A stretch of 64,000 bases of DNA from Thermoplasmata archaeon (GTDB taxonomy: Archaea > Thermoplasmatota > Thermoplasmata > Lutacidiplasmatales > UBA184), in NCBI GenBank assembly GCA_030041175.1, contig JASHOK010000006.1, positions 7,710 through 71,709 on the forward strand. The letters run 5' to 3'. Position 1 is the first letter of the stretch. Each line of letters opens with the position of its first letter. The notes under the pieces are model-generated. The model ran no database searches, was not told where the DNA came from, and saw nothing but the letters and a program-made list of their open reading frames with translations. A program made the translations under genes and the position numbers. Shown here piece by piece: positions 15,973 through 60,142 of this stretch.

Positions 15973-16899
15973 ATGTCCCGCGTCCGTGTCGAGGACCTCG
16001 GGTCCAACCGTTTCCAGATCGACCTGGACTTTCGCGACGTGGAGGGCTTGATCGCGAGCTATCTCCTACCGGACGAGGAGGGCTGGACCCTCGTGGAAAC
16101 CGGTCCGGCCTCCTGCAGAGAACGCCTAGCACAGGGTCTGGCGGCCGCGGGCATCGAGACGGCAGACGTCCGGCGGGTATTCGTGACGCATATTCACCTC
16201 GACCACGCGGGTGGCCTTGGGGCCGTGGCCGATCTACTGCCGCGGGCCCGGCTCTACGTCCACCGGGAAGGACTGGAGCACATGGTCGACCCGACTCGCC
16301 TGATTGCAAGCGCGCGTCGCGCCTGGGGTGCGGCGGCCGACCCGTTGTGGGGACCCATTCTGCCCGTGCGGCCCGACCGACTCGTCCCGTTGGTCGGTGG
16401 CGAAACCTTCGCCCTGCGCGATGGACCCCTCGAGGTACTTCCCACGCCCGGCCACGCCCGGCACCACCTCGCGTTCTTTGACGTCCGAACTCGGTCGATG
16501 TTGACGGGCGACGCGGCCGGGGTCCACCTGGCCGGTACCGGAGCCGTTCGCCCGGCCCTCCCTCCCCCGGATCTGGACTTGGAGGCTCTGCTGGAGAGCG
16601 TGGAGCGAATGCTAGAGAAACGGCCGGATCGTCTACTCTATACCCACTTCGGTCCTCGAGAGGGTGGTTCGGCCGCCCTCGCGGAGTATCCCCAGCTGGT
16701 GCTGCGCTGGAAGGAGGTGGCGCTCCGCGCAGCGCGGGAAGACCCTACGGTCGACCACGTTGCCTCCGAGCTCGCCAAAGATGCGCGGGATCGGATCGGT
16801 GGCAGCAACGACGATCCCCGACCCGACCTGATCTCTGGGACAGCGATGGCTGCGCAAGGCCTGCTCCGGTACTTCCGTACGCGAGGTCTGATCTCCTGA
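15973..16899 (+). CDS. MBL-fold metallo-hydrolase
   Basis: THIHLDHAGG (HxHxDH) plus downstream TPGHARHH. Confidence 0.8.
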   Translation: MSRVRVEDLGSNRFQIDLDFRDVEGLIASYLLPDEEGWTLVETGPASCRERLAQGLAAAGIETADVRRVFVTHIHLDHAGGLGAVADLLPRARLYVHREGLEHMVDPTRLIASARRAWGAAADPLWGPILPVRPDRLVPLVGGETFALRDGPLEVLPTPGHARHHLAFFDVRTRSMLTGDAAGVHLAGTGAVRPALPPPDLDLEALLESVERMLEKRPDRLLYTHFGPREGGSAALAEYPQLVLRWKEVALRAAREDPTVDHVASELAKDARDRIGGSNDDPRPDLISGTAMAAQGLLRYFRTRGLIS

Positions 16900-16988
16900 C
16901 GACGCGCGAAGATTTCGTCGGTCCTGAGCTGAGGCCGGCGCTCGCCCTCTTCGGCGCCAGGGTCGTCTACGCCTTCAACTGGTACAAC

Positions 16989-18140
16989 GTGGGGGCACTT
17001 CTTCCCCTCATTGGGGCCACTTTCGCCGCCAATACCGCCCAGCTCAACGTGGTCCTGGCAGCGTTCCTCGTCGGGGTGGGAATCTTTCAGGTTCCCGCGG
17101 GATTTCTCGACCTCCGCTGGGGGTCCCGGCGGACGGCGCTTGCGGGTTTGGTGCTGATGGGCGCAGCCTCTCTCGCCTCCGCGTTCTCCGGGACGCTCGT
17201 CGAACTGATCCTGCTCCGTTTCTTCGCGGGGGTCGGAGCAGCGTTCTTCTTCTCACCGGCGCTCAGCCTTGTCGCGTCCTACTTCCCGCCCGGCCGACGG
17301 GGGCCGATCATCGGTCTCTACAACGGAGGATTCAGTCTCGGTGGCGCCATCGGCGTCACTGCCGGTGCGGCGATCGGGCTCCGGTTTGGATGGCCGTTCG
17401 CGCTCGGCGTCGGTGGCGTGGGCCTCCTGATCATGGCGGTGTACAATTGGTATGCGTTACCGGAAGGCCCCGTCCGGGCGGTCGCGGCCGACGTGGCTCA
17501 GCGATGGACGGTGGCGAAGTCGATCTTCCGGTCCCGGTCGATCTGGATGCTCTCCCTCGGGTTTGCCGGCTTCTGGGCGGCGGTTTATGTGGTCGCCCAA
17601 GACTATGTCAAGTTCGCCCATGTCGTCCACGCGGCCTGGGGAATCCAGACTGCGGCGGACGTCGCCACGATTTTCATTCTCGCCTCGTTCCCGGGGGGTC
17701 TCCTTGGCGGCTGGATCGCCGAACGCGGCTCGGACCGGCGAGCCCTGCTAGCGCTCTTCGGCGTCGCCGTTGGACTCTTGATCGCGGCGATTCCGTACCT
17801 CGGACTGTACGCGACGGCAGGGGTCTTTGTGGTCGCGGGCCTGTTTGACGGAGTTGTGTTTGCGATCCTCTATCTCGTGCCCTCCTACCTGCCGGAGAGC
17901 CACGGCGCCGGCCTCGCCCTGGCTATCGCAGTGATCAACTCGATTCAGGTGCTCCTCGGCAGCATCATCGCCGTCGTCTTTGGGGTCGTGGCGTTCGACT
18001 CCGGGTTCACCGTGGCCTGGATCTTCGCGGGGCTGCTCACGATCGGGCTGGTCCCACTCGTACTCTTCGTGGTGCCGAATCGGGCCGGTCCCGCGGTCGC
18101 CGCGCCGGCGAGGGCGGTGGACGCTCCTACGTCGAAGTGA
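16989..18140 (+). CDS. MFS transporter (true start probably upstream of 16989)
   Basis: About 12 TM segments with an MFS loop DLRWGSRRT. In-frame upstream sequence RPALALFGARVVYAFNWYN looks like TM1 but has no ATG/GTG/TTG. Confidence 0.75.
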   Translation: MGALLPLIGATFAANTAQLNVVLAAFLVGVGIFQVPAGFLDLRWGSRRTALAGLVLMGAASLASAFSGTLVELILLRFFAGVGAAFFFSPALSLVASYFPPGRRGPIIGLYNGGFSLGGAIGVTAGAAIGLRFGWPFALGVGGVGLLIMAVYNWYALPEGPVRAVAADVAQRWTVAKSIFRSRSIWMLSLGFAGFWAAVYVVAQDYVKFAHVVHAAWGIQTAADVATIFILASFPGGLLGGWIAERGSDRRALLALFGVAVGLLIAAIPYLGLYATAGVFVVAGLFDGVVFAILYLVPSYLPESHGAGLALAIAVINSIQVLLGSIIAVVFGVVAFDSGFTVAWIFAGLLTIGLVPLVLFVVPNRAGPAVAAPARAVDAPTSK

Positions 18141-19572: not shown

Positions 19573-19646
19573 CCGAGCTCTCCGATGTCCTCCGGCCTCG
19601 TGAACGTGGGGACCTTTTAGTATCGTTCCCCGCTGCGCTTCCTCAT

Positions 19647-19719
19647 AGCCCCGTGGTGTAGTGGCCAAGCATGCTGGCCTTTGGAGCCGGCGACAGCGGT
19701 TCGAATCCGCTCGGGGCTA
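19647..19719 (+). tRNA. tRNA-Gln (anticodon UUG)
   Basis: 73 nt. Acceptor AGCCCCG/CGGGGCT with discriminator A, anticodon stem CTGGC/GCCGG, loop CTTTGGA (U33, TTG), T arm AGCGG-TTCGAAT-CCGCT. No encoded CCA and no intron. Confidence 0.8.
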
Positions 19720-19791
19720 TCGCGGGGAAATGACGGACCTTACGACCGGACCACTGGGCGTCCGACGGCTACCCGCTGGGAGCGCTAACGC

Positions 19792-23479: not shown

Positions 23480-23812
23480 CTATCCCGTCGAGCCGCGGAA
23501 GGCCCGGAGTCCCCCCTGGGCGTTGTACGCAAACTCACAGCGATAGATCGCCGGCCCGTGTCGGGCCTCGGCATTCCGACCCCGCCGGTCCCCGGCGATC
23601 GTCAATCGGTCAACCGTGGGCCAACCGGTCTCGACCTTGATCCGGGCGACGAGGTTCCGGAACTGAACCGCGCACACTTCGCAGCAGAAGAAGAGCCGCT
23701 GGCCCTCCACTTCCTCCCAGAGGTCCCCCCAGCTCGAGTCGCAGATGGCGCAGGCGGTGTAGTTAACCTTCAAACTGGGTCCCCCGTTCGAGCCGGGCAA
23801 CCAGGTAATCAT
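23480..23812 (-). CDS. small Cys-rich putative metal-binding protein (Ta0938-like?)
   Basis: CAIC...CCEVC cysteine pattern. An alternative TTG start at 23773 would reduce the overlap with the upstream gene to a few nt. Confidence 0.5.
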   Translation of the reverse strand: MITWLPGSNGGPSLKVNYTACAICDSSWGDLWEEVEGQRLFFCCEVCAVQFRNLVARIKVETGWPTVDRLTIAGDRRGRNAEARHGPAIYRCEFAYNAQGGLRAFRGSTG

Positions 23813-24659
23813 CGAACAGGTCTGCCGAGCGAAGGAAGGTGGCCTGAACGGCCTCTCGCTGGCCCGGGCCGGTCGAAAACTGCTCGACCAACTCCAGCGC
23901 CTCGTCCGAATGACCCACGTCGGCCTCGTAGCCTTCGCGGAGGAAGGCTTGGGTCTCGTGCGTTACTTCCGTGCCCTGGAGGATCCGCGGATCAAAGTAT
24001 CGGAGAGTGGCCCCGTGTTGGACGAGCTCCCGGTTCGCGATCAGCTCGAGACTGTGCATCGCCGCCATCGCCTCCACCCAGGGCTCCTCGCTCGCGATCC
24101 GGTTCCATGCTCGGATTCCCACCGCGGTGGACGGTAGCGGCGGAGTGGCCAGGATTTGTGCCCGGTCGAGTCCCAGGCTCTCGCCCATCCGGAGCAGGAG
24201 CTCGTAGTGCGACGGAGCCGGCGTGCCGAAACCCCCGAACTCGGTGTTCAGGTTGTCGAGTTCGTACCGGGCTACCGCCGGTTCGTCGGTGCGGGCCATG
24301 ATGAACGCGCACGAACGAACCCACTGCCGGAGGAAATGCTGGTGCTCGACCACGTAGCCCAGAAGCGTCGCGCGCGAGGGGTGTTGCAGAGCCACCGGGA
24401 ACGGGTGAGGGGTTGGGCCGTAGAACTTCTGGATAAACCGGTCCTTAATCCAGACAGACACCGGCTTCCCCTCCAGATCGAAAAAGGCCCGGAGCCGGCC
24501 CTCGAGTTCCCGAGCGGGCATTTTCTGTCGGGAAATGTTCTGGTTGAGCCAGCGGACGTGGCCGGAATCGCTCGCGTCAGCCTGCGCAACGAGGTGCGCC
24601 GCCAAGGCGGAGTAATCTCCCAGTCCAAATCGCTCGAGGCACGCGGGACACTTTGTCAT
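23763..24659 (-). CDS. N-terminal zinc-finger fused to a heme-oxygenase-like / iron-containing redox enzyme domain
   Basis: MTKCPACLERF...AAHL...GH (C-x2-C...H...H) is followed by an all-helical domain (YVVEHQHFLRQW, HYELLLRMGESLG, MAAMHSLELIANRE, EGYEADVGH). This resembles the TenA/PqqC/HO-like four-helix-bundle family. Confidence 0.6.
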   Translation of the reverse strand: MTKCPACLERFGLGDYSALAAHLVAQADASDSGHVRWLNQNISRQKMPARELEGRLRAFFDLEGKPVSVWIKDRFIQKFYGPTPHPFPVALQHPSRATLLGYVVEHQHFLRQWVRSCAFIMARTDEPAVARYELDNLNTEFGGFGTPAPSHYELLLRMGESLGLDRAQILATPPLPSTAVGIRAWNRIASEEPWVEAMAAMHSLELIANRELVQHGATLRYFDPRILQGTEVTHETQAFLREGYEADVGHSDEALELVEQFSTGPGQREAVQATFLRSADLFDDYLVARLERGTQFEG

Positions 24660-27529: not shown

Positions 27530-28456
27530 ATGGATCTCAGTACCCTAGTTCTCCCGACCGCGCTTCTCGGCACCGCCGCCGCGGGCGCTTTCATCGGTTG
27601 GCGCGTCTACCAGCGTTACTACCGGGCAGTCCCTCCCAATCGGGCGCTCGTCGTTTACGGCGGAAGCCGTCCTCTCGCCGCCTCCTCGAGTGGGCCGCAG
27701 GTCGACGTTCGTTCGCCCCGGATCATCGTTGGGGGAGGCATCTTCCTTCCGCCATGGCGGCACGGTTCGGACTCGCTCTCGCTGAGTCCGCTCGACGTCG
27801 AGGCCCGCGTGGTGTTGGCCGCCAACCCGGCGGACCCAGCGGACGTGCCGTGGGAGGCGAGGCTCGCGGTCCAGGTGAAGATTCCGACAGAACCCAACAT
27901 GTTGCGGACCGCGGCCGAGAATCTACTCGGACGGAGCGAACCGGAGCTTCGGGCATTGGTGATCCGTATCGTAGAGGCAGTTGCGCCTGCGGTTGTTCTC
28001 CGGGAGCTGTCGGCCGACCCCAAGACCGCGTGGGATCGGCTGGCCGCAGAAGTCCAGGCCGCCGTCGCGCCGGAGCTAGTATCGCTCGGTTTCGAGGTTC
28101 GGACCCTGTCGGTGGTCCAGCTGCGTCGGGTCGCGGTGGGTGACAGGACCGAACCCGGTCTTCCGGGGGTATCTGCGCTCTCGCGGGACCTTCTGTGGGC
28201 TTCGGGCGACCTCGGGGTGCGCCTCCGGTCCGCGGAGCTGCGGCTGGACCGGACCGAGCGCAGTCTCGGATTGCTTGGAGCCGAGGTGATGCGTCTCGGT
28301 CGGGATGGCTCACAGTTCCCGATTCTTCCGACGTTGCAGCCTTACGATTCCACGGGGGACGAGCCACCGGTTCGGGCCCTCTCTCGAGGCTCGAAGGGAG
28401 CCGAGGGGAGAGGGTCGACCGGCGCCACCCGACCTCTGTTGGATACAGAAGGGTGA
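27530..28456 (+). CDS. membrane-anchored SPFH (flotillin/band-7-like) protein
   Basis: N-terminal TM helix LVLPTALLGTAAAGAFIGW, then YYRAVPPNRALVVYGG..PRIIVGGGIFLPPW...LAVQVKIPTEPNMLRTAAENLLGRSEPELRALVIRIVEA...LVSLGFEVRTLSVVQL follows the flotillin-type SPFH pattern. The C-terminal region is unassigned. Confidence 0.7.
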   Translation: MDLSTLVLPTALLGTAAAGAFIGWRVYQRYYRAVPPNRALVVYGGSRPLAASSSGPQVDVRSPRIIVGGGIFLPPWRHGSDSLSLSPLDVEARVVLAANPADPADVPWEARLAVQVKIPTEPNMLRTAAENLLGRSEPELRALVIRIVEAVAPAVVLRELSADPKTAWDRLAAEVQAAVAPELVSLGFEVRTLSVVQLRRVAVGDRTEPGLPGVSALSRDLLWASGDLGVRLRSAELRLDRTERSLGLLGAEVMRLGRDGSQFPILPTLQPYDSTGDEPPVRALSRGSKGAEGRGSTGATRPLLDTEG

Positions 28457-28466
28457 GAAACAAACC

Positions 28467-29486
28467 ATGTGCCCAGCAGCAATTTTGGGAGATCGAGCAT
28501 GCGGAAAGACGACTTTCCTGGGACTACTCTATGCGGCCCAGGTCAAGTACGGTACCCGGGTCGCTGACTCGTTCCGGTTCCACGCACCGTTGCAGTCGCT
28601 TCGCCTGATGAGCCAGGTCTACGAGGGAATGAAGGACGCGCGCTTCCCCGGAGCGACGCTCAAAGACGAGATGACGGAGATCGGCTTCGTCTTCGGGTAC
28701 CGGAAGGCGTTGTCCGGTCGACTGCCCACGGTGCTCAAGGAGAAGAACTGGGTGAACCCCTTCGCCAAGCTCCAGTTCGCTGCCTACGATGTCTCGGGCG
28801 AAGATGTCCAGGAGTTCATTGAGTCCGGAGTAGCGGCCAGCCCCATCATTCAGCAGCTGTTGAAGAGTCACATCGTCGTCGTGCTGGTCGACTGCAGCAA
28901 GATGACCACCGAGATCGATTCCCCACTCTTCCGCCAGATGCTGAAGTACGACAGTGAGGTGGCCTCGCTCCTGGTCTCGCTCCAGACCTACAAGCGCCAG
29001 GAATTCACCCGGATGAAGGCTCAGGGGCTCAATGTCGGCAACCCCGTGATCTATCCCGCGATGGTCCTGGCCAAGTTCGACTCGGTCCGCGACGAGGTGC
29101 TGGTGAAGCTTGGGCTCCACCGCGGCGTGCCGGCGGGAGACCAGAAGCGCAAGCGCAAGGAGTACGCCGAGGCGCTGCTGCGCGTCTTCATGCCACAGAC
29201 GCTCTCACAGATCCGAGGAGGCAAGGTGGCCGGGGTCAACTTCGACCAGGCGGCCTACTTCTTCAGCTGGGTCAAGACCGAAACGGCGGAGGCCGGCATG
29301 CAGCCCGTGGGCGCTCCCCGGATTGTCCGGAAGGGCTTTTCGGCGGACGGCGGAGCGGAGCCGGACTTCTCGTATGACGACTACGTCGCGTTCATTGAGC
29401 ACTTCCGCGATGTGGCCAACAAGGTCCCCGACGAGATCGTGGAGCAGACGACCCTCCAGGCCGCACCTGCACCGGCCCCTGCCTGA
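28467..29486 (+). CDS. P-loop GTPase-like protein (unclassified family)
   Basis: Start at ATG 28467, with GGTGA 10 nt upstream. G1 GDRACGKT is at residues 8-15, followed by a G3-like YDVSGED, strand VVVLVDCS and a G4-like LAKFDS. There is an insert of about 90 aa between G1 and G3. Confidence 0.65.
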   Translation: MCPAAILGDRACGKTTFLGLLYAAQVKYGTRVADSFRFHAPLQSLRLMSQVYEGMKDARFPGATLKDEMTEIGFVFGYRKALSGRLPTVLKEKNWVNPFAKLQFAAYDVSGEDVQEFIESGVAASPIIQQLLKSHIVVVLVDCSKMTTEIDSPLFRQMLKYDSEVASLLVSLQTYKRQEFTRMKAQGLNVGNPVIYPAMVLAKFDSVRDEVLVKLGLHRGVPAGDQKRKRKEYAEALLRVFMPQTLSQIRGGKVAGVNFDQAAYFFSWVKTETAEAGMQPVGAPRIVRKGFSADGGAEPDFSYDDYVAFIEHFRDVANKVPDEIVEQTTLQAAPAPAPA

Positions 29487-29498
29487 GGACCGCCACCG

Positions 29499-30341
29499 AT
29501 GCCCGACGCCCAGATGGAGGCTCCGGTGCTCGAGACTCCAGCCGAAGTGCTGCAGCTCGAGCACTGGATCTACGGAGCGAGCCCGGAGAAAGGATACGGC
29601 ACGAAGGCCGAGTCGGCCGGCTTAAACGGTCCGCTGTACCAGCGGTATCTCGGAAACCACTTCACTCCGGTCCGGGTGGAAAAGACCGCCAGCGGGTCGA
29701 CGGTGATCGACGCGCGGATGATCCACCCGGCCCCGGCGAACGACGAGGTGCTGCTCTCCGTCCTGGGACGGGGCGCCGCGGACGAGTACAACCGCCCGAC
29801 GATTGCCAACCACACGGTGGTGATTCCGGGAGGCTTCCTCCGTTCGGGTCGGCTGACCCTCACGCAGGCAGAAGCCGCGATCCTGGACTTCGACCGACGC
29901 CTTCCAAAGGCGAGTGGCCGCGTCGAGCCGCTCACGGTGCGTCTGTCCTCCGACACGGTCCCTCGGGAAAGCCCAGGATCAGGCATCCGGCGGTACATCA
30001 CTCGGGCCGCGGTCGATACACTGGTCAGCCGGTTCCTCGCAGATTCGCATGGGCGGACGCTCCTGCTCTGTCGGGGGAGCACGCATCAATATCGGAACGA
30101 GTTGCTCTACAAGCTCGTGGAGCTCCTCCACGCGGGGGGAGAGATCCCGCTGTTCACCGCCATCAGCGACGCGCCCACCCTGAGCGCCATGAACCACTTC
30201 CGTCTCGCGATCTCCTCTCGCGGGGTCCGGGCGGACGGGACCTGGACGCTCCTGGACGCTAGCATCGACCGGCCGACTCTCCAGCCCGTTCGGGGACGAG
30301 CGCCAGTCTACTCTCGAGTCGCGGAAGCGTTCGGGACTTAG
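29499..30341 (+). CDS. hypothetical soluble protein (280 aa) between the two GTPase paralogues
   Basis: GAGGA 9 nt upstream of the ATG. Balanced composition, no TM segment, no motif I can name. Confidence 0.6.
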   Translation: MPDAQMEAPVLETPAEVLQLEHWIYGASPEKGYGTKAESAGLNGPLYQRYLGNHFTPVRVEKTASGSTVIDARMIHPAPANDEVLLSVLGRGAADEYNRPTIANHTVVIPGGFLRSGRLTLTQAEAAILDFDRRLPKASGRVEPLTVRLSSDTVPRESPGSGIRRYITRAAVDTLVSRFLADSHGRTLLLCRGSTHQYRNELLYKLVELLHAGGEIPLFTAISDAPTLSAMNHFRLAISSRGVRADGTWTLLDASIDRPTLQPVRGRAPVYSRVAEAFGT

Positions 30342-30406
30342 CCGACCGCACTGAGACTGCCGCGCTGCCAGTCCGCGAACCCGGGCCTGTCCCGCCGAGC
30401 CGTCCG

Positions 30407-31339
30407 ATGGCCTCCGCGCTGGTCCTGGGTGAACGAGGTTGCGGTCTCACGACCTTCGTGGGGCTGCTCTACACGGCGCAGGTCCGCCTCGGGACGGAGC
30501 ATGCCGACGAGTTTCGGTTCCACGCGGACCGGGACTCGATCCTTCGCATGGAGGCCGTCTATGGCGAGCTCGGTGCCGGCCGATTCCCCGCGGCGGATGT
30601 CGACTGGGAGCGGAACCTGCTCTCGTTCGTCTTCGGCTTCCGACGCGGGCATGTGGCTTGGTTCGCCGGTGGCGGAGGCTCCGGCGAACACGGATTCTCC
30701 GCAGTCCGATTTCAGGTAGGCGGAATGCCCGCCGAGGTCGTTTCGGAGCTTCGAGATCATGACGCCGTACTCGACGGAACGACCCTCCGTTTGCTGAAGA
30801 GCCCCATCCAGCTTCCGATCGTCGACGGGGCATGGTTGGTTCCGGACCGCTCCAGTACGGCCGGACTTCCCCTGGCCCGATACGACCAGCACCTTGCGGC
30901 GACCCTGGACCTCCTCCACAAGTTCCTCGCCGCCGACCGGGATCGGCGGGCGCGGCAGATGTTTCCCTTGTTCGTCGTTACTAAGTTCGATCGGATCCGG
31001 CCCGACTCGCTCCGCGCTCTCGAAGCCCCCGAGGGACCTTCGAGTGAGTGGACCCCCGAAGATCGGAAGTCCGTCGGGACCCGGATACTCTCGGGCTATC
31101 TCCCGGCTACTCGGGACTTTCTACTGCGCTCTAGCCATGATGGCGTGCGTATGGCGGAACCGGCGTGGTACTTCAGCGGGGTCAAGACAGAGGAACGCGG
31201 GGACGAGCTCCGGATTCTCCGGCGTCGCATCTCGCCGACCAGCGGATGGGAGCCCGACTATCCGTTCGAGGAATTCAAGGGGCTGCTCACCCATCTCGGC
31301 GAACTCGCCGGGCGGCTTCCGGTCGAAGCCATCGACTAG
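30407..31339 (+). CDS. paralogue of the 28467 GTPase-like gene with degenerate nucleotide-binding motifs (pseudo-GTPase)
   Basis: ALVLGERGCGLTTFVGLLYTAQVRLGTEHADEFRFHA aligns with AAILGDRACGKTTFLGLLYAAQVKYGTRVADSFRFHA (25 of 37 identical by eye). The Walker A Lys is Leu (CTC at 30446..30448) and G3 reads FQVGGMP. VVTKFD is retained. Confidence 0.65.
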   Translation: MASALVLGERGCGLTTFVGLLYTAQVRLGTEHADEFRFHADRDSILRMEAVYGELGAGRFPAADVDWERNLLSFVFGFRRGHVAWFAGGGGSGEHGFSAVRFQVGGMPAEVVSELRDHDAVLDGTTLRLLKSPIQLPIVDGAWLVPDRSSTAGLPLARYDQHLAATLDLLHKFLAADRDRRARQMFPLFVVTKFDRIRPDSLRALEAPEGPSSEWTPEDRKSVGTRILSGYLPATRDFLLRSSHDGVRMAEPAWYFSGVKTEERGDELRILRRRISPTSGWEPDYPFEEFKGLLTHLGELAGRLPVEAID

Positions 31340-33018
31340 CCCGATGGGACCTTCGCAGCCTCCGCCGGTGACGCTCGGTACTTGAACCCGTCCCGATGGC
31401 TACCTTCTCGGACGACTTCCCAGCCGGGAATCCGCCAAACGCCGTCCGGTGGCACTGCCTGAGGATCGCCCTGAGCGAGCTCTCCGAGCTCAGCCTCGAG
31501 GTACTCGTGGTCCGTCGCGACGTCGGGCGCGATCTGGCCTTTCTGAAGCAAGGAGGCCAGAAGCGGAAGCCCTGCTGGCCGGCCCCTCCAACGGACCGCG
31601 AGGAATGCCTTCCGGGCTTCCACGTCCTCGAGCAGCAGCTGGCGTAAGGACGCGTACGGCGGTCGGCTCCGGTAGTCTCGGGGGGGACCGTCCAGGCGAT
31701 GCCGCTCCCGACGCGCTTCCTCGAGCACCCCGCGCCAGGTCGAGGGGCGCACAGACCTGGCCTCCCAGATGGCCGACGGGTCGAGGGGCTCCTCGCTACC
31801 CGAATCGTCGGTCCCTGCGGGACCGCCACCGGCCTCGCCCGGCAGAGCGGACACTCCCTTTACGCCGGGTCGGCGGAGCGACCTGGGGCCCTGGAGCGTG
31901 TACGCGAGAGCTGCCCCTGTGGCCGCGCCGGAAGGCGGGCGGATTTGGAGTTCCTCGCAGTCGGGATATCGGTTCGGATGAAGTACGACGAACGGACCGG
32001 TCTCTGCTGAACTGAACAGCGCCGCGAGGGCGTCGTTGACCGTCGGTACCTGGCGGCGTACAGCCAGCTCACTCAGCTTCACGAGCGGGAGCGGGGCCTC
32101 GGCCTTGCGAGCGTGGGCGGCTAGGTCATCGAGCAGGGCCTGCGCAACTTCCGCCTGAATCTGCTGGGTCGCTGTTCGGGTGACGGCCTGGTCGGCGGGC
32201 CGGGCACGGGTCAAGCCCTGCCGGACCCGATGGCTCAGGCCCCCGTGGCGCCGGGCGTGCTGGTGCAGGCTGCGCAATCGGACGTTGATCCACGGGTGGA
32301 GCCGGCCACCGCTGACCTTCGACTCCGCGAAGATGCCGCCCCACCGATCCGGCGTCTCGGTGTCCCAGGTCGAGCGCCCCGGGCTCTCTCGGTACCACCG
32401 GAGTGCGAATTCTCGCAGGAGGGCGCCCGCGTTGAGCGGGTCGTCGACCTCGCGTTTAACGCGGTCCATCAGGGCCTCGGCCCGGTCTGCCACGAGAGTC
32501 ACCTGATCTGCGTCGCCCAGATCCAGGTGGAGCAGACCAGAGATTGGAACGGTGTTGAGCTCCAGGATATCGAAGCGCTCGGCGGGGTCCAGAGCCAGAA
32601 ACGCCCGAAGCGGGTCCGGGATCAGTGGTCTTCCGACCTCGCGCACCCGGTCCGCGGGTCCCGGAGGGTGGGCCGCACCGCCCGCCGGGTGGCTCGACGG
32701 GGTGTCCGGGCTACCCTCGGAGGCTCGCGAGGCTCCCGCGGCCCCCTCTCCGGGAGTGATCGGGCTCTCGTCAGCGGAGCCACTGGGATGGGCGCCACCC
32801 CGCCGGAGCGTTTCGACGTTGTGCAGCCGGCGATGATGCTCCCGTTCGATGCGAAGCCGCTCCTCGGCCCGGCGACGATCCCTCTCCCGCTGAATGCGGT
32901 CGGCGTCTGTCTCGGCCGGCATACAACACAGGGGTCGCCGACCCCCCGGGAAATTGGGTCGACCGAAGGCATTAATCGTTTCGTCCGGGGCCGGTGGACT
33001 CTGCCCCCACGGTGTCAC
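31336..33018 (-). CDS. hypothetical protein (up to 560 aa; alternative start ATG 32922)
   Basis: Convergent with the pseudo-GTPase gene, with a 4-nt overlap of stops. The N-terminus has an R/E-rich segment ([26 protein letters not shown]) and a P/G/S/A-rich linker. The remainder has mixed composition with no recognisable motif. Confidence 0.5.
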
Positions 33019-34653: not shown

Positions 34654-35229
34654 GTGCGTATGGCCGCGGGTGGTCCTCCGGCGCTCACCGACCAGCTCTC
34701 TGTCGAAGACCGGCGGTGGCTGCACGACAAATTCGAACGGTTGACCGCCGAGGAGGGCCAGCTGGCCGCCGGACGGACGTCCTACTTCGCGGCCGTGGTC
34801 ACAGTCCTCATCACGGCGGTCGTGGTGTCCGTGGCCGATCTCTCTGCCCATCGCCTCGAGCTCGCGCTGGTGGTGACCTTCCTCTCGTCGTTGGGAATCC
34901 TGATCACATTTGTCTGGTGGGTCCTTCTGCACCGGACCAACGACGCCCACGCATTGTGGACCCAGGCGAGCCTCCAGTTGGAACAGGTCGCTCCACCGAT
35001 CGCGGGGTCGCTTCCGGGCACGATCCGGCTGCGTTCCGGCGAAACGGTGTCGGTGAACCTCCTGCGCCCGGCCGAGGTTCACGCGACCCGGTTCTCCCGA
35101 GATCGCGCCGTGTCCCCGATGGATCGAGTCAATCCCGACCGGCTCACCGAGCTGCTGCCCCAGACCTTCCTCGTGGTCTGGGTGGCAACGATCCTTCTGA
35201 TCTGGTCGTGGTACGGCGGAGTGCATTGA
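34654..35229 (+). CDS. hypothetical membrane protein (191 aa)
   Basis: Two central TM helices and one C-terminal TM helix. No family recognised. Confidence 0.5.
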   Translation: MRMAAGGPPALTDQLSVEDRRWLHDKFERLTAEEGQLAAGRTSYFAAVVTVLITAVVVSVADLSAHRLELALVVTFLSSLGILITFVWWVLLHRTNDAHALWTQASLQLEQVAPPIAGSLPGTIRLRSGETVSVNLLRPAEVHATRFSRDRAVSPMDRVNPDRLTELLPQTFLVVWVATILLIWSWYGGVH

Positions 35230-35241
35230 CCGGGCGGCCCG

Positions 35242-36615
35242 TCACACGTCGACGTGGGTACGGATCTGCCCCCGACGAATCGCTCGCAAGAACTGTGCAT
35301 AGTCGTGCTCTACCTGATCGGCGTACGCCTCGGCAAAGGCCGTCACAGCCAAATCGAAGACCGGTCGATTCCCGAGGTACCCCGCGAGGAAGGCAGGGTC
35401 CCCGGTCCGGGCATGGGCTCGGGCGAGCGTGGCTCCGCACAGTTCGGCCCAGCCGAGCAAGGTTCGGGGCCGGAGCGTGGTCACGTCGGTGGAGAACTTC
35501 ATGTCTCGCAGCTGCCGGATGTAGAAGTCGCGGGATTGGAGGCGACTCCAGCCGAGGAAGATGTCGCTGGACTCCTGGATCAGGTGTTGCCCCACCACGA
35601 CCCGCTGCGCGTGATTCTCGTACGCGCTCGGCCCCGCGAACGGCTCGAGCACCGAGGCCCGGGCCTCCTTGAGCTGCAGAAAGACGGGGTCCTCGACATC
35701 GCGGTCGCCCAGCAGCAGGAGGACCGCACAGACCGTCCCGACGCTGCCGACCCCGACTACTTTCTGGGCCACGTCGGCGATATGATACCGGTCCAGGAGG
35801 ACGCGGCGTTCGGGCGGCAAAGAGTCCAGGTAACGATCATAGAAGGTCCGCGACTGTCGCTCGTCGGCAGGATTCGCGTAGTGTACGATGAGCGGGGGGT
35901 CATCCCGGATCCGGTAGCGTCCATGGACCTCTCGCACAAGCTTGGGGAAGGCGTGAAGCACGGTCCGGCGCCGGGCGCGACGCACGGCCTGCTCAATGAC
36001 GGCCGTCTCGGCACGGCCGGCATGCGCCGCCACGATCCGGCGATCAATGTGGGCATACCACGTATCGAGATACCGCGCGCGCCCGAACGCGCGCATTGCG
36101 CCCCGGTACACTCGAAGGGCGGTCCGGGTCACCCACCGCGCATTCTCTGGAGATACCCCGTTGTGTCGTGCCGCGAGGACCAGACTCGTCGCGAGTCGCT
36201 TCACGTCCCACTCCCACGGACCCGGGAGCGTCTCATCAAAGTCGTTCACGTCGAAGACGCGGTCACGCTCGGGGGTTGCGAAGACCCCGAAGTTGTTCAT
36301 GTGCGCATCGCCACAGAGCTGGACCCGGGCGCCGGTCGTCGGGGTGCCGGACAGGTCGTGAGCCATCAGATCGGCCGAGCCCCGGTAGAAGGCAAACGGC
36401 GAGAGAGACATGCGGCCAAACCAGATCGGAACCAGGGCCGGCACCCGCCCCTTCGCGGATTCGTTCAAAATCTCGAGCACGTCCCTGTGATCGGCCGCCG
36501 GGGCCCAGGCCGCATGGCTGGATCGCGGAGCCTGCTGACGAGCCTCCTTGCCAGCCACCGTCCGCCGCCGGCGCGTCTCCGAGCGGCCGGATGGCGGCCG
36601 GATCGAGAGGGCCAT
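35242..36615 (-). CDS. DUF2252-family protein
   Basis: FAFYRGSADLMAHDL, LCGDAHMNNFG, FDVNDFDET and WDVKRLATSL match my recollection of DUF2252. Confidence 0.75.
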   Translation of the reverse strand: MALSIRPPSGRSETRRRRTVAGKEARQQAPRSSHAAWAPAADHRDVLEILNESAKGRVPALVPIWFGRMSLSPFAFYRGSADLMAHDLSGTPTTGARVQLCGDAHMNNFGVFATPERDRVFDVNDFDETLPGPWEWDVKRLATSLVLAARHNGVSPENARWVTRTALRVYRGAMRAFGRARYLDTWYAHIDRRIVAAHAGRAETAVIEQAVRRARRRTVLHAFPKLVREVHGRYRIRDDPPLIVHYANPADERQSRTFYDRYLDSLPPERRVLLDRYHIADVAQKVVGVGSVGTVCAVLLLLGDRDVEDPVFLQLKEARASVLEPFAGPSAYENHAQRVVVGQHLIQESSDIFLGWSRLQSRDFYIRQLRDMKFSTDVTTLRPRTLLGWAELCGATLARAHARTGDPAFLAGYLGNRPVFDLAVTAFAEAYADQVEHDYAQFLRAIRRGQIRTHVDV

Positions 36616-55657: not shown

Positions 55658-56539
55658 CTAAGCAGCGGCGAGCAGCCGATTCCAGTCCTGCTCGCCGGCC
55701 CAGTCGTCGAGGGTGTGCCACCCGATCTCGGGATAGTCATGGCGGAGGGCCGGGATGTCGACGGTATACCCATGCTGTCCGAGCCACTCGCTCATCTTGG
55801 CGAGGTCCGGGTTCTGCTGCCGGATTCCCTCCAATGGGAGGACCTGGAGCCGGACCGGCCGGCCGATCCGCTGGCTGAGAACGCTGGCGACCTGCACCGG
55901 CGTAAGCTCGTCACCGGCGACCTCGACCCGCTGACCCCGAAACCTGCTGGCCTTTTCGATGAGCATCGTATCGAAGGCCGCCAGATCCTCGAGAGCGATC
56001 ATCTGGATGGGCTTGTCCGCCGGCACCCAGGAGCCGTAGGTTCCCTGCCGGAGGCCAGGAAGGGCGAAGGGGGCGACGACGTTCTCCATGAACGAGACCG
56101 GCCCGACGATCGCGAACGGAAGTCCGCTGGTCCGCAGCTGGTGCTCGACAGCGAACTTGCTGTCGAAGTGCGGAATGCCGGTGTGCTGGCTCGCCGAGGC
56201 CACGGAGGAATAGAGGACGAACGGGACCTCCGCGGCTCGAAGACCCTCGATGACCGATATGCCCTGCTTCCGCTCCACGTCGGCGCCGGCGAAGGGCGTT
56301 CCCATCAGGAAGGCCGCGTCCACGAGCTGCGCAGCCTGCTCGACCGACGACGGATCGTCGAAGCTGCCCTGCACGACCTCGACACCTTGGGCCCGCAGAG
56401 CCTTCGCGGCGGGGGTGGTAGGGTCCCGTACGAGGGCCCGCAATCGATGGCCCCGCGCCTTGAGCTGCCTGAGCAGAGTTCCGCCCTGCTTTCCCGTGGC
56501 ACCGGTTACGAGGACATGGAGGGACCGGTCGGCCATCAT
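55658..56539 (-). CDS. NmrA-family NAD(P)-binding protein
   Basis: VLVTGATGKQGG Rossmann motif and NmrA-like length. Start at MMADRS (ATG 56539). Confidence 0.8.
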   Translation of the reverse strand: MMADRSLHVLVTGATGKQGGTLLRQLKARGHRLRALVRDPTTPAAKALRAQGVEVVQGSFDDPSSVEQAAQLVDAAFLMGTPFAGADVERKQGISVIEGLRAAEVPFVLYSSVASASQHTGIPHFDSKFAVEHQLRTSGLPFAIVGPVSFMENVVAPFALPGLRQGTYGSWVPADKPIQMIALEDLAAFDTMLIEKASRFRGQRVEVAGDELTPVQVASVLSQRIGRPVRLQVLPLEGIRQQNPDLAKMSEWLGQHGYTVDIPALRHDYPEIGWHTLDDWAGEQDWNRLLAAA

Positions 56540-56799
56540 GTGGACGGAAGATTTCGAAGAGGGCATCGGCCGCACGAAGTTCACTAGGGCAAAGCATTGA
56601 CTCCCGGGGACCGAGCGGTCCTGCCAAGTCCCGGAATGGCCGTCGCCGCGTTGAAATATTCCGAAACCGACGTTCATGTCGAGAGGCAAGGCGCACGTCA
56701 GCCCCACCGCCTGAGAGTTGGCCCCCGCCGCCGGCGACGCCGAGACCGACCGGGCTCGAAGCGGCGCGCAGTTGGTACCGGCGTCATCGCCCCGCGCTC

Positions 56800-57753
56800 G
56801 TGCTGGTGGGCCTCTCGATTCTCATCCCGGAGCTCCTGACGGGCTCGACGCGGGTCGCATCCCTCCTGAACCCGGTCGCGGATCTGTTCCTGCTCGGACT
56901 CTACGGAGGCGGCGTGCTCGTGATTCGAGAGGTCGCCCTTCGGTGGAATCGCGGCTGGGCTCCCGTCCTGTTGCTCGGAGGAGCGTACGCGATCGTCGAG
57001 GAGGGTCTCGGCACGAAGACGTTCTTCGATTGGGTCGAAATCGGGCGGCCGAACTTTGGACCCTATACTCACTGGGCGGGCGTGAACTGGGTGTGGGTCG
57101 GTGAGCTCACGGTTTTCCACGCCGTATTCAGCATCGCACTGCCGATCGCTCTGACGGGGCTGCTATTCCCCCCGGCAAGCACCCTCCGGTTCCTGACGAA
57201 CCGGGGAGTGGTCGCGACTTTCGGGGCGTACCTGGTGACCACGACCACGATGTTCTTCCTTTTCGTCCGGCCCTTTACACTGGCCCCGCCACTCCTGGCC
57301 GGCTGCCTCCTTTCGATAGTCGTCCTCGTGGTCGCGGCCTGGCGGGTACCCGCCGGTTGGCTCCGGCCTCGGACGCCCGAGCCGGCGATGGCTCCGCGAA
57401 CGGCGTTCTGGCTCGGTGCCGGATTTGTGTGGGGGTTCTTCGTCATCTTTCTCGGGCTTCCCGGCCTCCTCCGGGATCCCTTCCTCACGGTCGGCGTGGG
57501 GTGGGCCTATTCCTGGGCGTGCCTCTGGCTCCTGCGAGCCCGTCTCGGAGTACTGGGGAACGAGTCCCAGATCGCCTACCTCTGCCTGGGGCTGCTGACG
57601 TTCTTCGTGGTGTTCGCAGGTCTCGAAGAGTTCGCGGGAGACCTGTACGCCTTTCTCGCGATCGCGGCGGTACTCTACGTGATGTTCCGCGTATTCCGAA
57701 TGTACCGATCGGTCGGAGCCGCGGTCAACATCCCCGCCGGGGCCGCTGCGTAG
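56800..57753 (+). CDS. polytopic membrane protein, function unknown
   Basis: About 8 TM segments. GTG start. A 260-bp spacer upstream has no canonical in-frame start. Confidence 0.55.
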   Translation: MLVGLSILIPELLTGSTRVASLLNPVADLFLLGLYGGGVLVIREVALRWNRGWAPVLLLGGAYAIVEEGLGTKTFFDWVEIGRPNFGPYTHWAGVNWVWVGELTVFHAVFSIALPIALTGLLFPPASTLRFLTNRGVVATFGAYLVTTTTMFFLFVRPFTLAPPLLAGCLLSIVVLVVAAWRVPAGWLRPRTPEPAMAPRTAFWLGAGFVWGFFVIFLGLPGLLRDPFLTVGVGWAYSWACLWLLRARLGVLGNESQIAYLCLGLLTFFVVFAGLEEFAGDLYAFLAIAAVLYVMFRVFRMYRSVGAAVNIPAGAAA

Positions 57754-57895
57754 GGCTCCCGAATCCTCCGATCGACCCCCGGTCCGGGCGGCTCTCGGGG
57801 TTGGGCCACGGTCATTAGGGCTCGGCCCATCACTCCGCCCGTCTTTCGATGACCGGGCTCGACCCCCCCGCGGCTCGTACCACACTCGCTTTCGG

Positions 57896-58657
57896 TTGGG
57901 GGCCGCCGTGACCGCTCCCGGTGCCTTGGCCGGGCGTCGGGTGGTGGTCACCGGCGCCGGGAGGGGACTCGGCCGGGCCTTCGCCATCGTTGCGGCGGAT
58001 CAGGGAGCGAACCTCGTTCTCCTGGGGCGGGACCTCGCAAAGCTCGAGGCCGTGGCCGCCGCCATCGGGGCCCGTACCGGCAGCACTCCGCAAACGATCC
58101 GCTGCGACCTCGGCGACGCGGAAAGTGTCGGGCGTGCCTGCACGACCGTGCTCGACCGTGATGGGATCGTTGACGTTCTCGTGAACAACGGTGCCCCATG
58201 GCTGTCAGGACGATTCGCCGACCTCGAGGACGCCGACATTCGTGCGACCGTGATGGCTGCGGGGGCCGGAACGATTCTGGTCACGAAGGGACTGCTCTCC
58301 GGCCTTCGCCGGTCCACCGCGGCCGACATCGTGACCATCGTATCGACGTCGGGCCTGAAGGGCCAGGAACCCGGCGTTGCCTCGGTGGCCTTTACCGCGG
58401 CGAAGTTCGCCCAGGCCGGTATCAGCGAGCATCTGGGGTCCGAACTGCGACCCGAGGGAATCCGGGTGACTGCAATTTACCCGCCGGACTTCGAGGACTC
58501 GGATCCGCTCGGGCCGGAGTGGCTGAAGGACCGAGACCCGGCTTCGGGTGCGCGGCTGAGCAACCGGGAAGTGGTGGCCGCGATCCTGTTCGCCGTGACG
58601 GCACCTCGGGTTTGTGCGTACACCGAGATTGTCCTCGCGAACATGGGGCGGCGGTGA
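57896..58657 (+). CDS. SDR-family oxidoreductase
   Basis: VVVTGAGRGLGRAFA (TGxxxGxG), NNGA, and catalytic-region AFTAAKFA. Confidence 0.85.
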   Translation: MGAAVTAPGALAGRRVVVTGAGRGLGRAFAIVAADQGANLVLLGRDLAKLEAVAAAIGARTGSTPQTIRCDLGDAESVGRACTTVLDRDGIVDVLVNNGAPWLSGRFADLEDADIRATVMAAGAGTILVTKGLLSGLRRSTAADIVTIVSTSGLKGQEPGVASVAFTAAKFAQAGISEHLGSELRPEGIRVTAIYPPDFEDSDPLGPEWLKDRDPASGARLSNREVVAAILFAVTAPRVCAYTEIVLANMGRR

Positions 58658-58829
58658 GTCGACGCGCCTCCGCCCGGTCCCAACCCACCCCGCGGACCGG
58701 CCTCTGACGGTTGGTCGAAGCTTTGGACGTGCGCGAACCGGCGGATAGGCCGCTCAGTGGCCCCCCAGATCCCGGTAGGGGCCTGCGGCACTCGGAGGGC
58801 ACGATGCGCGGGTACGGAGTCCACCGACA

Positions 58830-60137
58830 ATGAACGACGTCGCTGCGCTGCTCCTCGCGCTCACCGTCGGCGGTGTCATCGTTCGCCAGCTGCTGCGGCG
58901 GGGTCCCCCGATATGGACGATTTTCGCAGCCGGCGCGTTCTTGATGGTGGCCACCGAGTCCCTGCCGCTGACAGGCGCCAGCGCCGCCATCGGTGCCAAC
59001 CTCCCGATTCTCGTCTTCCTGTTCTCGCTCTTCCTGTTCGCGACCGCCCTCGACGAGGCTGGGGCCCTGGAGCACCTGGCCGAGTGGATCCTCGGAAGGG
59101 CCCGCCGGTGGGCGGACGTGCCCCTCGTGCTCTTTGCCGCATTCGCTCTGTTGTCCGCGTTCATTCTCAACGACGCCCTCGTGCTCATCGGGGTCCCGTT
59201 GCTGTTTCGGGTGGGGCGACGCATCCACATCTCTCCGGAACCGTTGCTCCTCACCCTGGCACTCTCCGTGACGGTGGGGAGCGTGCTGACTCCGTTCGGG
59301 AACCCGCAGAACCTCCTCGTATCGCTGGACAGCGGCGTTCCGGCGCCGGTGGCCACGTTCCTGCGCTATCTCCTGCTGCCGACACTGGTGAATATCGCGC
59401 TGGGTGGACTCTACCTTCGACACGTCTTCGGCCGACCGCTGGCGCGGGAGCTCGAAGCCCGAAATACCCCGATGGCCACGCCCGTGCCGTTCTTTCCGGC
59501 CGGGGACCTTCTCCCCCGGATCGTCCGGCATCCGGTGCTCGTGATCTTTCCGGTCACGATGATCGGGCTGATAACGGCCGACCTGGTCGCGGCGTACACC
59601 AGTGGGCCGGCGATTCCTCTCTACGCCGTGGCGCTCGGTGCCGCTCTCGTAATGTTACTTGCAACCCCGGGGCGCTCCGGTCTGCTCGGCCGGGTCGACT
59701 GGTCCATCCTGATTCTGTTCGCTTGCCTCTTCGTCGTCGTCGCGGGAGCGGTGAATGGCGGAGTCGTGGCGGCGCTCGAACATGTATTCCCGATCCCGGG
59801 GCCCGGCGACCGGGTGGAAGCCCTCGGCGCGATTATTCTTACGAGCGTGGGTGGGCCGCAGCTCGTCAGTAATGTCCCCTGGGTGGGCCTCCAGATCGCC
59901 CTCCTCCATGGCCTGGGCTACGGGAGCAACACCCCATGGGCGTGGGTGGCGCTGGCCGCCGGAAGCACGCTGGCGGGAAACCTGACGCTGCTCGGAGCGG
60001 CGAGCAACCTCATCGTGGTGGAGCAGGCCGAGCGGGCCGGTCTCCGTATCGGACTCCGGTCGTTCATTCGGGTGGGGCTCCCCCTGACAGGAATCACGGT
60101 GAGCGTCCTGTTCGTGTGCCTCTGGGCCGGGCTCTGA
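58830..60137 (+). CDS. ArsB/NhaD-superfamily (SLC13-like) anion permease
   Basis: About 11-12 TM segments. ILVFLFSLFLFATALDEAG and GNPQNLLV-type re-entrant motifs resemble the citrate/arsenite permease superfamily. Confidence 0.7.
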   Translation: MNDVAALLLALTVGGVIVRQLLRRGPPIWTIFAAGAFLMVATESLPLTGASAAIGANLPILVFLFSLFLFATALDEAGALEHLAEWILGRARRWADVPLVLFAAFALLSAFILNDALVLIGVPLLFRVGRRIHISPEPLLLTLALSVTVGSVLTPFGNPQNLLVSLDSGVPAPVATFLRYLLLPTLVNIALGGLYLRHVFGRPLARELEARNTPMATPVPFFPAGDLLPRIVRHPVLVIFPVTMIGLITADLVAAYTSGPAIPLYAVALGAALVMLLATPGRSGLLGRVDWSILILFACLFVVVAGAVNGGVVAALEHVFPIPGPGDRVEALGAIILTSVGGPQLVSNVPWVGLQIALLHGLGYGSNTPWAWVALAAGSTLAGNLTLLGAASNLIVVEQAERAGLRIGLRSFIRVGLPLTGITVSVLFVCLWAGL

Positions 60138-60142
60138 GTGCG

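Follow-up and report, generated by a model that had tools for sequence, protein, structure and literature searches.

The window analyzed here is a stretch of 64,000 nucleotides from a Thermoplasmata archaeon (contig JASHOK010000006.1, positions 7,710 to 71,709), in which five neighboring genes, A to E, encode a flotillin-type SPFH protein, a predicted active GTPase, a protein with a predicted TagF/longin-DENN-like fold, a degenerate paralog of the GTPase and a protein whose model has no fold match among PDB structures or viral models. Judged from sequence comparison and predicted structures, the locus is filed as an undescribed archaeal variant of computationally predicted double-GTPase systems, with C, E and the flotillin as a new set of partners. 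With moderate confidence, we read it as a membrane-proximal GTPase switch module that is chromosomally inherited in Thermoplasmata and for which a stable cellular role is favored. An earlier reading of the window (the original prediction) had proposed a membrane-associated GTPase switch module, and had offered GTPase-centered conflict systems and eukaryote-like trafficking modules as leads.

Organization and conservation of the locus

Genes A to D are co-directional on the forward strand, at 27530-28456 (A, 308 aa), 28467-29486 (B, 339 aa), 29499-30341 (C, 280 aa) and 30407-31339 (D, 310 aa). According to the open reading frame (ORF) map and the junction sequences, they are separated by 10 nt (A-B), 12 nt (B-C) and 65 nt (C-D). 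Shine-Dalgarno-like motifs can be read from the sequence before B (GGTGA, 28452-28456, 10 nt before the ATG and overlapping the stop codon of A) and before C (GAGGA, 29485-29489, 9 nt before the ATG). Gene E is convergent to D, and its stop codon at 31336-31338 gives a D/E overlap of 4 nt. These spacers, motifs and the overlap were all confirmed from the sequence as originally described, as were the motifs of B and the identification of D as a B paralog without the Walker A lysine. The length of E needed revision. It had been given as 560 aa, which is the longest ORF, opened by the GTG at 33018. Because the public protein P0241, 100% identical to E, has 528 aa and begins at the ATG at 32922, the start is most likely this ATG rather than the GTG, which places E at 31336-32922 on the reverse strand. 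A scan for sigma-70 promoters and terminators gave nothing above expectation, and such a scan is uninformative for an archaeon.

Whether the five genes co-occur elsewhere had been raised in the original prediction. One genome per species was scanned, 80 loci were retained from 105 matches, and all five proteins were mapped onto these loci. The genes form a conserved unit, in which B, C, a B paralog and E remain linked across the 80 loci although their order differs in four or more ways. The orders seen are A-B-C-D-E(rev), E(rev)-A-B-C-D, D'-B-C-E(rev), E-D'(rev)|B-C and E-B-C-D. Since this linkage persists through rearrangements, there is strong evidence that the five-gene locus is a real functional module with B, C, the B paralog and E as its conserved core. 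The proposal that A to E belong together is to be revised to a core of four genes, with A as an addition in one subtype.

Three types can be distinguished. Type 1 is the window's subtype, with the order A-B-C-D-E(reverse), constant gene composition and a B that in nearly all loci shares 86-97% identity with that of the window; in one sub-clade E is relocated upstream and divergent, which gives E(rev)-A-B-C-D. In type 2, B is ~67% identical to the window's B, the order is D'-B-C-E(rev) or E-D'(rev)|B-C, and there is no SPFH gene. Type 3 has a B of 53% identity and the order E-B-C-D with all genes co-directional. As A lies upstream of B in the type-1 loci having upstream DNA and in 0 type-2 or type-3 loci, it is by its distribution an accessory of the type-1 subtype alone. 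Types 1 and 2 occur together in three metagenome-assembled genomes (MAGs), and the MAG JOPF257 combines a type-1 locus (L016) with a locus of the B/C-AAA kind (L093), which is described below. The B of locus L045 is an outlier at 76% identity because the C-terminal third of this ortholog, P0016 (L045:8001-8996, OY970259.1), reads as unrelated Arg/Pro-rich sequence; the same is seen in P0099, and it is probably a frameshift or assembly error.

Homologs of B are restricted to MAGs of Thermoplasmata/Thermoplasmatota. Both C and E had been called orphans, which is correct in that neither has a Pfam family, but each has ~190-240 homologs at E <= 0.001, and all those with a source name are from Thermoplasmata.

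B and D as probable fringe members of the DO-GTPases

The sequence of B contains G1 as GDRACGKT (residues 8-15, 28488-28511), a switch-I threonine for G2 (Thr64 in PGAT), G3/Walker B as DVSGE (residues 108-112, 28788-28802) and G4 as AKFD (residues 202-205, 29070-29081), together with a conserved C-terminal extension of ~130 aa. The Walker B pattern D[VI][SA]GE is retained in all aligned B orthologs. D is 30% identical to B over its full length (BLASTP, E 2e-43), and its G1 reads GERGCGLT (30428-30451), in which the lysine is replaced by leucine. It has also lost the G2 threonine and the G3 DxxGE, so that G4 (TKFD, 30980-30991) alone remains of the motifs. These motif states support the original view of a GTPase with a degenerate partner: B looks catalytically competent and D degenerate.

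A Pfam search with the five window proteins, as the original prediction had suggested, gave matches for B only, to DO-GTPase2 (22.7 bits) and DO-GTPase1 (17.3 bits), both under the cut-off of 27 and with the alignment limited to the P-loop segment; D has no Pfam match. Among 21 family members, 18 match DO-GTPase2 (E <= 0.1; best 1.7e-8) and 16 match DO-GTPase1. The gathering score of 27 bits is exceeded for DO-GTPase2 by P0118 (34.8), P0088 (32.6), P0107 and P0108 (30.3 each), and for DO-GTPase1 by P0088 (30.2), P0094 (28.6) and P0103 (28.0), with the P0103 alignment covering profile positions 4-179 of 226. EF-Tu, MMR_HSR1 and AAA_14 are the sole non-DO matches of the family, and they are weak. 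A search with the B/D profile against PDB sequences gave nothing meaningful (SR-alpha, E = 1), i.e., no solved structure is detectable by sequence.

Hallmarks of the DO-GTPase family are a glutamate in Walker B and the frequent occurrence of two paralogs, and its members were proposed as the core of conflict systems with paired paralogous GTPases, frequent transmembrane and zinc-ribbon elements and several systems per genome (Kaur, Burroughs, Iyer and Aravind, 2020, eLife, PMC7159879; PF19975, PF19993). Because B has DxxGE and an adjacent paralog, and because relatives pass the Pfam cut-off, B and D are placed as a divergent archaeal fringe branch of the DO-GTPases, within the TRAFAC class. 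The original prediction could not assign them to any named family, and this has to be corrected, as they fall at the fringe of one that is described computationally. The same placement makes the conflict-system lead relevant.

The locus resembles DO-GTPase systems in several respects. B is a TRAFAC GTPase with a glutamate after the Walker B glycine, there are two paralogous GTPase genes per locus (the paralog is present in types 1-3 and in the variant locus L088), a conserved non-GTPase partner gene, here C, lies just downstream of the GTPase, and further shared traits are transmembrane or zinc-ribbon elements and genomes with more than one system. However, the window's B stays under the Pfam cut-off and D lacks the Walker B glutamate. 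C has two domains instead of three and no similarity at sequence level to the GAP1-N1/N2/M/C models. The zinc ribbon or transmembrane helix is carried by E and not by the GTPase, a flotillin gene is linked, and in place of a GASH/FNIII protein and a variable effector there is a constant composition with a hyper-conserved GTPase. Pfam-level searches detected no GASH, FNIII, GAAD, EAD or recognizable effector domain in the five proteins or their orthologs. Our literature search found no experimental work on DO-GTPases, and the partners described for them (GAP1, GASH/FNIII, effectors) were not detected here. The outcome that the original prediction had named as a refutation, a characterized GTPase family with known operon partners, did not arise.

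Protein C has a predicted TagF/longin-DENN-like fold

The window's C has no match in Pfam, NCBIfam or PADLOC, and there is no Pfam match among 59 relatives searched in sets of 12, 37 and 10 members (E <= 0.1-1). Its profile gave nothing meaningful against PDB sequences (Csm2, E = 0.49) and retrieved 66 representatives of the family among 1.84 billion proteins. The AlphaFold2 (AF2) model of C, built from a shallow alignment of 71-93% identity, has a predicted local distance difference test score (pLDDT) of 77 and a predicted template modeling score (pTM) of 0.80. Two domains are seen in it, a longin-like alpha+beta domain at the N-terminus and an alpha/beta domain at the C-terminus. In a Foldseek comparison with the PDB, another check named in the original prediction, the best match was TagF (9t0n; E 3.4e-5, probability 1.0, template modeling (TM) scores of 0.49/0.44 over 300 columns), followed by the C9orf72-SMCR8 complex (E 1.3e-4, TM 0.25). 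Weaker matches were the Lst4 longin domain (E 0.04, TMt 0.35), a Lokiarchaeota Roadblock-Longin protein, FLCN-FNIP2 and GATOR1. C is thus predicted to be a two-domain TagF/longin-DENN-like protein.

Across 37 diverse members of the family, G32, P57, D95, R99, H105, R199 and P226 are near-invariant. Three of these lie in the near-invariant motif DEYNR....NHT of the N-terminal domain (residues 95-106, forward strand 29781-29816; DExxR....NH[TS] in the family). In longin GTPase-activating proteins (GAPs), the arginine finger is located in the longin domain (PMC12290439), and because of this Arg99 of C may be proposed, by analogy, as a candidate catalytic finger or contact residue.

TagF (PDB 9t0n, 6iz8) also follows a two-domain plan, with an alpha+beta N-terminal and an alpha/beta C-terminal domain, the latter of which was termed unlike any characterized protein (bioRxiv 10.64898/2025.12.08.692957). 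No other structure matched the C model as well as TagF, which acts as an assembly checkpoint by protein-protein binding; it binds an FHA protein, and FHA genes flank the B-D-C variants L088 and L091. On the other hand, no relationship to C is seen at sequence level, for which 59 family members were scanned against Pfam, and there are no type VI secretion system (T6SS) genes in the context. T6SS are not known from archaea, nor is TagF known to act on GTPases. The literature search found no paper that connects TagF with DENN.

Eukaryotic longin-DENN regulators act on paired or small GTPases: FLCN-FNIP with RagC/D, the Nprl2-Nprl3 subunits of GATOR1 with RagA/B, and C9orf72-SMCR8 with Arf/Rab. 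C resembles them in that an alpha/beta domain is predicted to follow a longin-like domain at its N-terminus, and the near-invariant arginine in a loop of this N-terminal domain recalls the arginine finger of the longin GAPs. Like the Rag/Ragulator components, it accompanies a putative GTPase hetero-pair and a membrane anchor. The differences are nevertheless considerable. There is no detectable sequence similarity, TM-scores are 0.2-0.25, and the d-DENN domain is not present in C, as in the AF2 model the chain ends at residue 280, one helix beyond the alpha/beta domain. Moreover, the GTPases are of the DO type and not Rag, Arf or Rab, and the hosts are Thermoplasmata and not Asgard archaea. 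The lead to eukaryote-like trafficking modules is relevant at the level of a predicted fold (TM 0.25-0.49), and nothing points to an evolutionary link. A further parallel are the MglA-MglB and Roadblock-longin platforms, in which a GTPase gene also lies next to an alpha+beta regulator of the longin/Roadblock fold class, and a Robl_LC7 gene is found beside the variant locus L092. Here, C is twice the size of MglB with an extra alpha/beta domain, and the GTPases are not MglA/Arf-like.

A and E as putative membrane tether

The window's A has an N-terminal hydrophobic helix (residues 5-24, 27542-27601) and no Pfam match; its flotillin signal is weak (NCBIfam FloT, 2.8e-8; flotillin-2, 1.5e-3). The family gives a stronger signal, as 8 of 12 A orthologs match Band_7 (best 8.9e-11) and the A family profile matches flotillin-1/2 in the PDB at 8e-16 to 1e-13. 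By these profile matches, A is a single-transmembrane flotillin-type SPFH protein. As in SPFH/flotillin scaffold operons, it is the first gene of the operon. Unlike in such operons, it is encoded with GTPases and novel proteins, the search of B to E detected neither a protease nor any other known family of SPFH partners, and the core module can do without A, which types 2 and 3 lack.

E consists in the AF2 model of a charged R/E-rich helix (residues 6-42, 32797-32907), a disordered Pro/Gly/Ser linker (residues 45-87, 32662-32790) and a conserved, mostly helical globular body (residues ~95-520, 31363-32640), all on the reverse strand. The body is well packed and the model has a pLDDT of 84, and Foldseek found no fold match for it in the PDB (best E 1.4) or BFVD (best E 0.32). 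Except for zinc ribbons, E and its orthologs have no Pfam match.

The N-terminus of E differs between the types. In type 1, where A is present, charged residues mostly make up 57-77% of a 30-residue stretch at the start of E, and a hydrophobic segment is missing. In type 2, where A is absent, the charged helix is missing and most E proteins have a hydrophobic N-terminal segment, a crude count as start codons are uncertain. Type-3 E proteins begin with a zinc ribbon that is followed by a proline-rich linker. Since the kind of N-terminus changes with the presence or absence of A, we infer that it serves as a membrane tether, and that in type 1 the tethering would go through the flotillin scaffold. 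The flotillin match of the A family at 8e-16, together with the putative transmembrane helix of E in the subtype without A, makes the originally proposed membrane association of the module plausible. The swap between a flotillin gene with a charged E helix and a transmembrane helix on E is also a natural experiment on how the complex may be recruited to the membrane.

Evolutionary rates and genomic context

Rates of nonsynonymous (dN) and synonymous (dS) substitution were estimated by the Nei-Gojobori method between the window and four genomes having the same flanks. As dS is ~1 or more and near saturation, we rely on dN and the rank order of the genes rather than on absolute dN/dS. B had the lowest dN (0.021-0.026), and the ranges for the other genes were 0.058-0.111 (C), 0.066-0.126 (the neighboring citrate synthase), 0.10-0.17 (D), 0.14-0.29 (A) and 0.25-0.30 (E). 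Compared over identical genome pairs, B evolves 3-5 times more slowly than citrate synthase. The dN/dS ratio is < 0.26 for each of the five genes and < 0.1 for D. The dS of B was 0.77-0.91 compared to 1.05-1.35 for citrate synthase, and because it is not much below that of its neighbors, the conservation of B is attributed from these rates to selection and not to recent transfer. Constrained codon usage or high expression might account for the somewhat lower dS of B. In more distant type-1 genomes, B retains 91-96% identity while A, D and E fall to 37-59%; D is 45-83% identical to the window's D among type-1 loci. Type 2 follows the same rate order (B 78%, C 52%, E 48% and D 42% identity).

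The neighbors of the locus are genes for a TenA/PqqC-like protein, citrate synthase, an OB-fold protein and an SRPBCC protein on one side and MsrB, VIT1, 8xMP, DUF2252 and CMD on the other, with no mobile-element genes among them. The TenA/PqqC-family protein has an N-terminal C2H2 zinc finger (23763-24659, reverse strand), the octameric membrane protein 8xMP lies at 34654-35229 (forward strand), and the DUF2252 protein at 35242-36615 (reverse strand). The G+C content is 64-69% across the whole window, with no compositional break at the five-gene locus. The only tRNA gene in the window is tRNA-Gln (anticodon TTG, 19646-19721, forward strand). An AT skew of about -0.17 to -0.23 occurs at 16001-18000 and 56001-62000 and is near zero over most of the remainder.

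In four loci, the type-2 module is directly beside an HD + HD_assoc_2 gene (L089:2712-6659 and L084:4540-5823 among them). The type-2 copy at L089/L090 also neighbors two ftsZ genes, Spt5/NusG and ribosomal protein L11, which by gene content is a conserved core-genome context. No relatives were found when IMG/VR viral contigs were scanned with the B/D alignment, nor when plasmids were searched with P0103 by tblastn. None of the five proteins matches a model in PADLOC-DB v2.0.0 at E <= 1.

A dyad of GTPase and C domain in distant relatives

In seven variants (types 1-3, L088, L092, L093 and L095), the C domain is encoded downstream of a B-type GTPase gene, directly or after the paralog. Among the variants examined, some of which were reached by tracing distant C-family members to their contigs, the sole one in which no GTPase gene is visible is a TIR-C fusion on the short contig L094. 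In L088, the order is B-like, D-like and C-like, with C identified by hhalign (probability 100%, E 2.4e-52) and with FHA and zinc-ribbon genes adjoining. Another gene of this locus, L088:5588-6415, was considered as the C ortholog and rejected, as it aligns like a degenerate GTPase paralog and the true C-like gene is the next one. Judged by gene sizes alone, L091 appears to have the same B-D-C trio, with FHA, TPR and TIR genes beside it.

In the other variants, the C domain is fused to ATPase modules. L092 (2659-7785) encodes a B-like GTPase (4e-40) followed by a HerA-like/DUF87-C fusion, with divergent genes for a Roadblock/LC7 protein (Robl_LC7) and a GvpD-like P-loop protein; a 504-aa gene after the fusion was ruled out as an E homolog by hhalign (probability 0.4%). 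In L093, a B-like GTPase (3.4e-90) precedes a C-AAA+-winged-helix fusion, and a gene for a guanylate-cyclase and TPR protein lies close to this pair (L093:5291-7234). In L095 (4937-14101), the genes for a B-type GTPase (hhalign, 5.8e-29) and a C-AAA+ fusion share an overlap of 4 nt, and the neighbors are SNase, Cas4-like PDDEXK, primase-polymerase (NrS1-1 HBD) and ArdC-N genes, a neighborhood that looks like a mobile element. As their second NTPase, the dyad loci may encode a pseudo-GTPase or an ATPase of the AAA+ or HerA-like kind.

Two further observations concern these relatives. A TIR_2 gene followed by a TrkA_N/RyR gene lies a few genes upstream of FHA|B-D-C (L091:2543-5279), and in L094 (884-4154) the TIR-C fusion is likewise followed by TrkA_N/RyR. 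In the protein P0425 (556 aa), retrieved by the search of representative proteins, the C domain precedes DUF7862 and FNIII-like matches that are weak and below threshold, which recalls the FNIII components of GAP1-N2 systems.

Probable cellular switch or possible conflict system

In the mechanism that we propose, B would bind and hydrolyze GTP, and D would be a non-catalytic subunit paired with B that may still bind nucleotide, as G4 is kept. C would dock on the GTPase pair as a regulator or adaptor (a GAP, a guanine nucleotide exchange factor or a platform), with Arg99 as a candidate residue. E might be a lineage-specific output or scaffold protein whose variable N-terminus, on its flexible linker, holds the complex at the membrane, and in the window's subtype A would supply a membrane microdomain that recruits E or the entire complex. 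As B binds and hydrolyzes GTP, the assembly state of this membrane-proximal complex would then be switched.

For the window's subtype, a stable cellular role, either housekeeping or regulatory, is favored over an antiviral role, because B is hyper-conserved, the composition is constant, there is no recognizable effector or mobile-element neighbor, and no PADLOC model matches. The ordinary metabolic flanks, the uniform G+C content, the type-2 copy beside ftsZ, L11 and Spt5, and the lack of viral or plasmid relatives also support this preference. Several points weigh against it. The DO-GTPase family was itself put forward as the core of conflict systems, and conflict-type features are seen among relatives of the B-C pair, namely TIR-C, AAA+-C and HerA-like-C fusions, the L095 context and one genome with several paralogous systems. 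Compared with citrate synthase, A and E evolve 2-4 times faster, and the flanking genes are common to the six closest genomes only. The fold of C comes from one AF2 model on a shallow alignment, in which residues 27-66 are of low confidence or disordered, and its TM-scores are low.

Some of these points lead to an alternative that we regard as possible, if doubtful, in which the locus is an archaeal GTPase-centric conflict system. B, D and C would form a sensor-switch core, and E, together with A, would serve as an effector or sensor directed to the membrane, with infection as the trigger of its release or activation. This would fit the remote DO-GTPase relationship with its diagnostic Walker B glutamate, as well as the paired paralogs with a conserved downstream partner, the transmembrane and zinc-ribbon elements and the several paralogous systems per genome, all as described for these systems (PMC7159879). 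It would also fit the fusion of the C domain to TIR, AAA+ and HerA-like modules in relatives, the SNase, Cas4-like, primase-polymerase and ArdC-N genes around the B/C-AAA locus L095, the TIR and FHA genes near the variants L088 and L091, and A and E being the fastest-evolving genes. However, searches of the five proteins and their orthologs gave no GAP1, GASH, FNIII, GAAD, EAD or known effector domain, and no PADLOC model matches the five. The type-1 composition is constant without hypervariable effectors, and B is hyper-conserved with all genes under purifying selection. The neighbors are ordinary, with uniform G+C content and no mobile-element genes, and the scans of viral contigs and plasmids retrieved no relatives.

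The extreme conservation of B might also point to a septin-like heteropolymer of B and D, i.e., a membrane-associated GTPase cytoskeleton or remodeling machine with C as regulator, flotillin microdomains and E as adaptor, which we consider attractive but decidedly improbable. A dN 3-5 times under that of citrate synthase is cytoskeleton-like, as is a B identity of 91-97% alongside 40-55% for A, D and E, and the dS of B below that of its neighbors is compatible with high expression; the active/inactive paralog pair, the TRAFAC class and the linked flotillin gene would agree with it as well. Nevertheless, B and D have no sequence similarity to septins, paraseptins or dynamins, and hyper-conservation has many other possible causes. 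That the five genes are functionally unrelated and their operon coincidental, for which nothing speaks beyond the missing annotation of C and E, is refuted by the linkage of B, C, the B paralog and E through rearrangements in the 80-locus survey, as well as by the 10-12 nt spacers with Shine-Dalgarno-like motifs and the 4-nt D/E overlap, and its probability is negligible.

Implications for DO-GTPases and Thermoplasmata

If the membrane-proximal switch module is taken further, a non-Asgard lineage might run a GTPase hetero-pair, a longin-DENN/TagF-like regulator, a flotillin and a new-fold protein as a housekeeping machine that is membrane-organizing or cytoskeleton-like. Such a machine would be a prokaryotic counterpart, possibly a relative, of Rag/FLCN-type logic, in which GTPase pairs work with a longin-DENN regulator and a membrane anchor. 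We consider this extension unlikely; if true, the conflict DO-GTPase systems and a cellular machine would share one ancestral dyad of GTPase and C domain.

As a compact archaeal DO-GTPase branch of constant composition and with a clear active/inactive pair, the locus offers biochemistry a manageable starting point. With C, a small family without annotation is established, and E adds a confidently modeled protein without a match in the PDB or among viral models. If the fold of C is confirmed, this regulator architecture would extend to Thermoplasmata, and GTPase regulation would become a testable hypothesis for a fold that in TagF serves to bind proteins. Finally, B evolves more slowly than citrate synthase, which speaks for the importance of the module in these abundant and uncultured Thermoplasmata.

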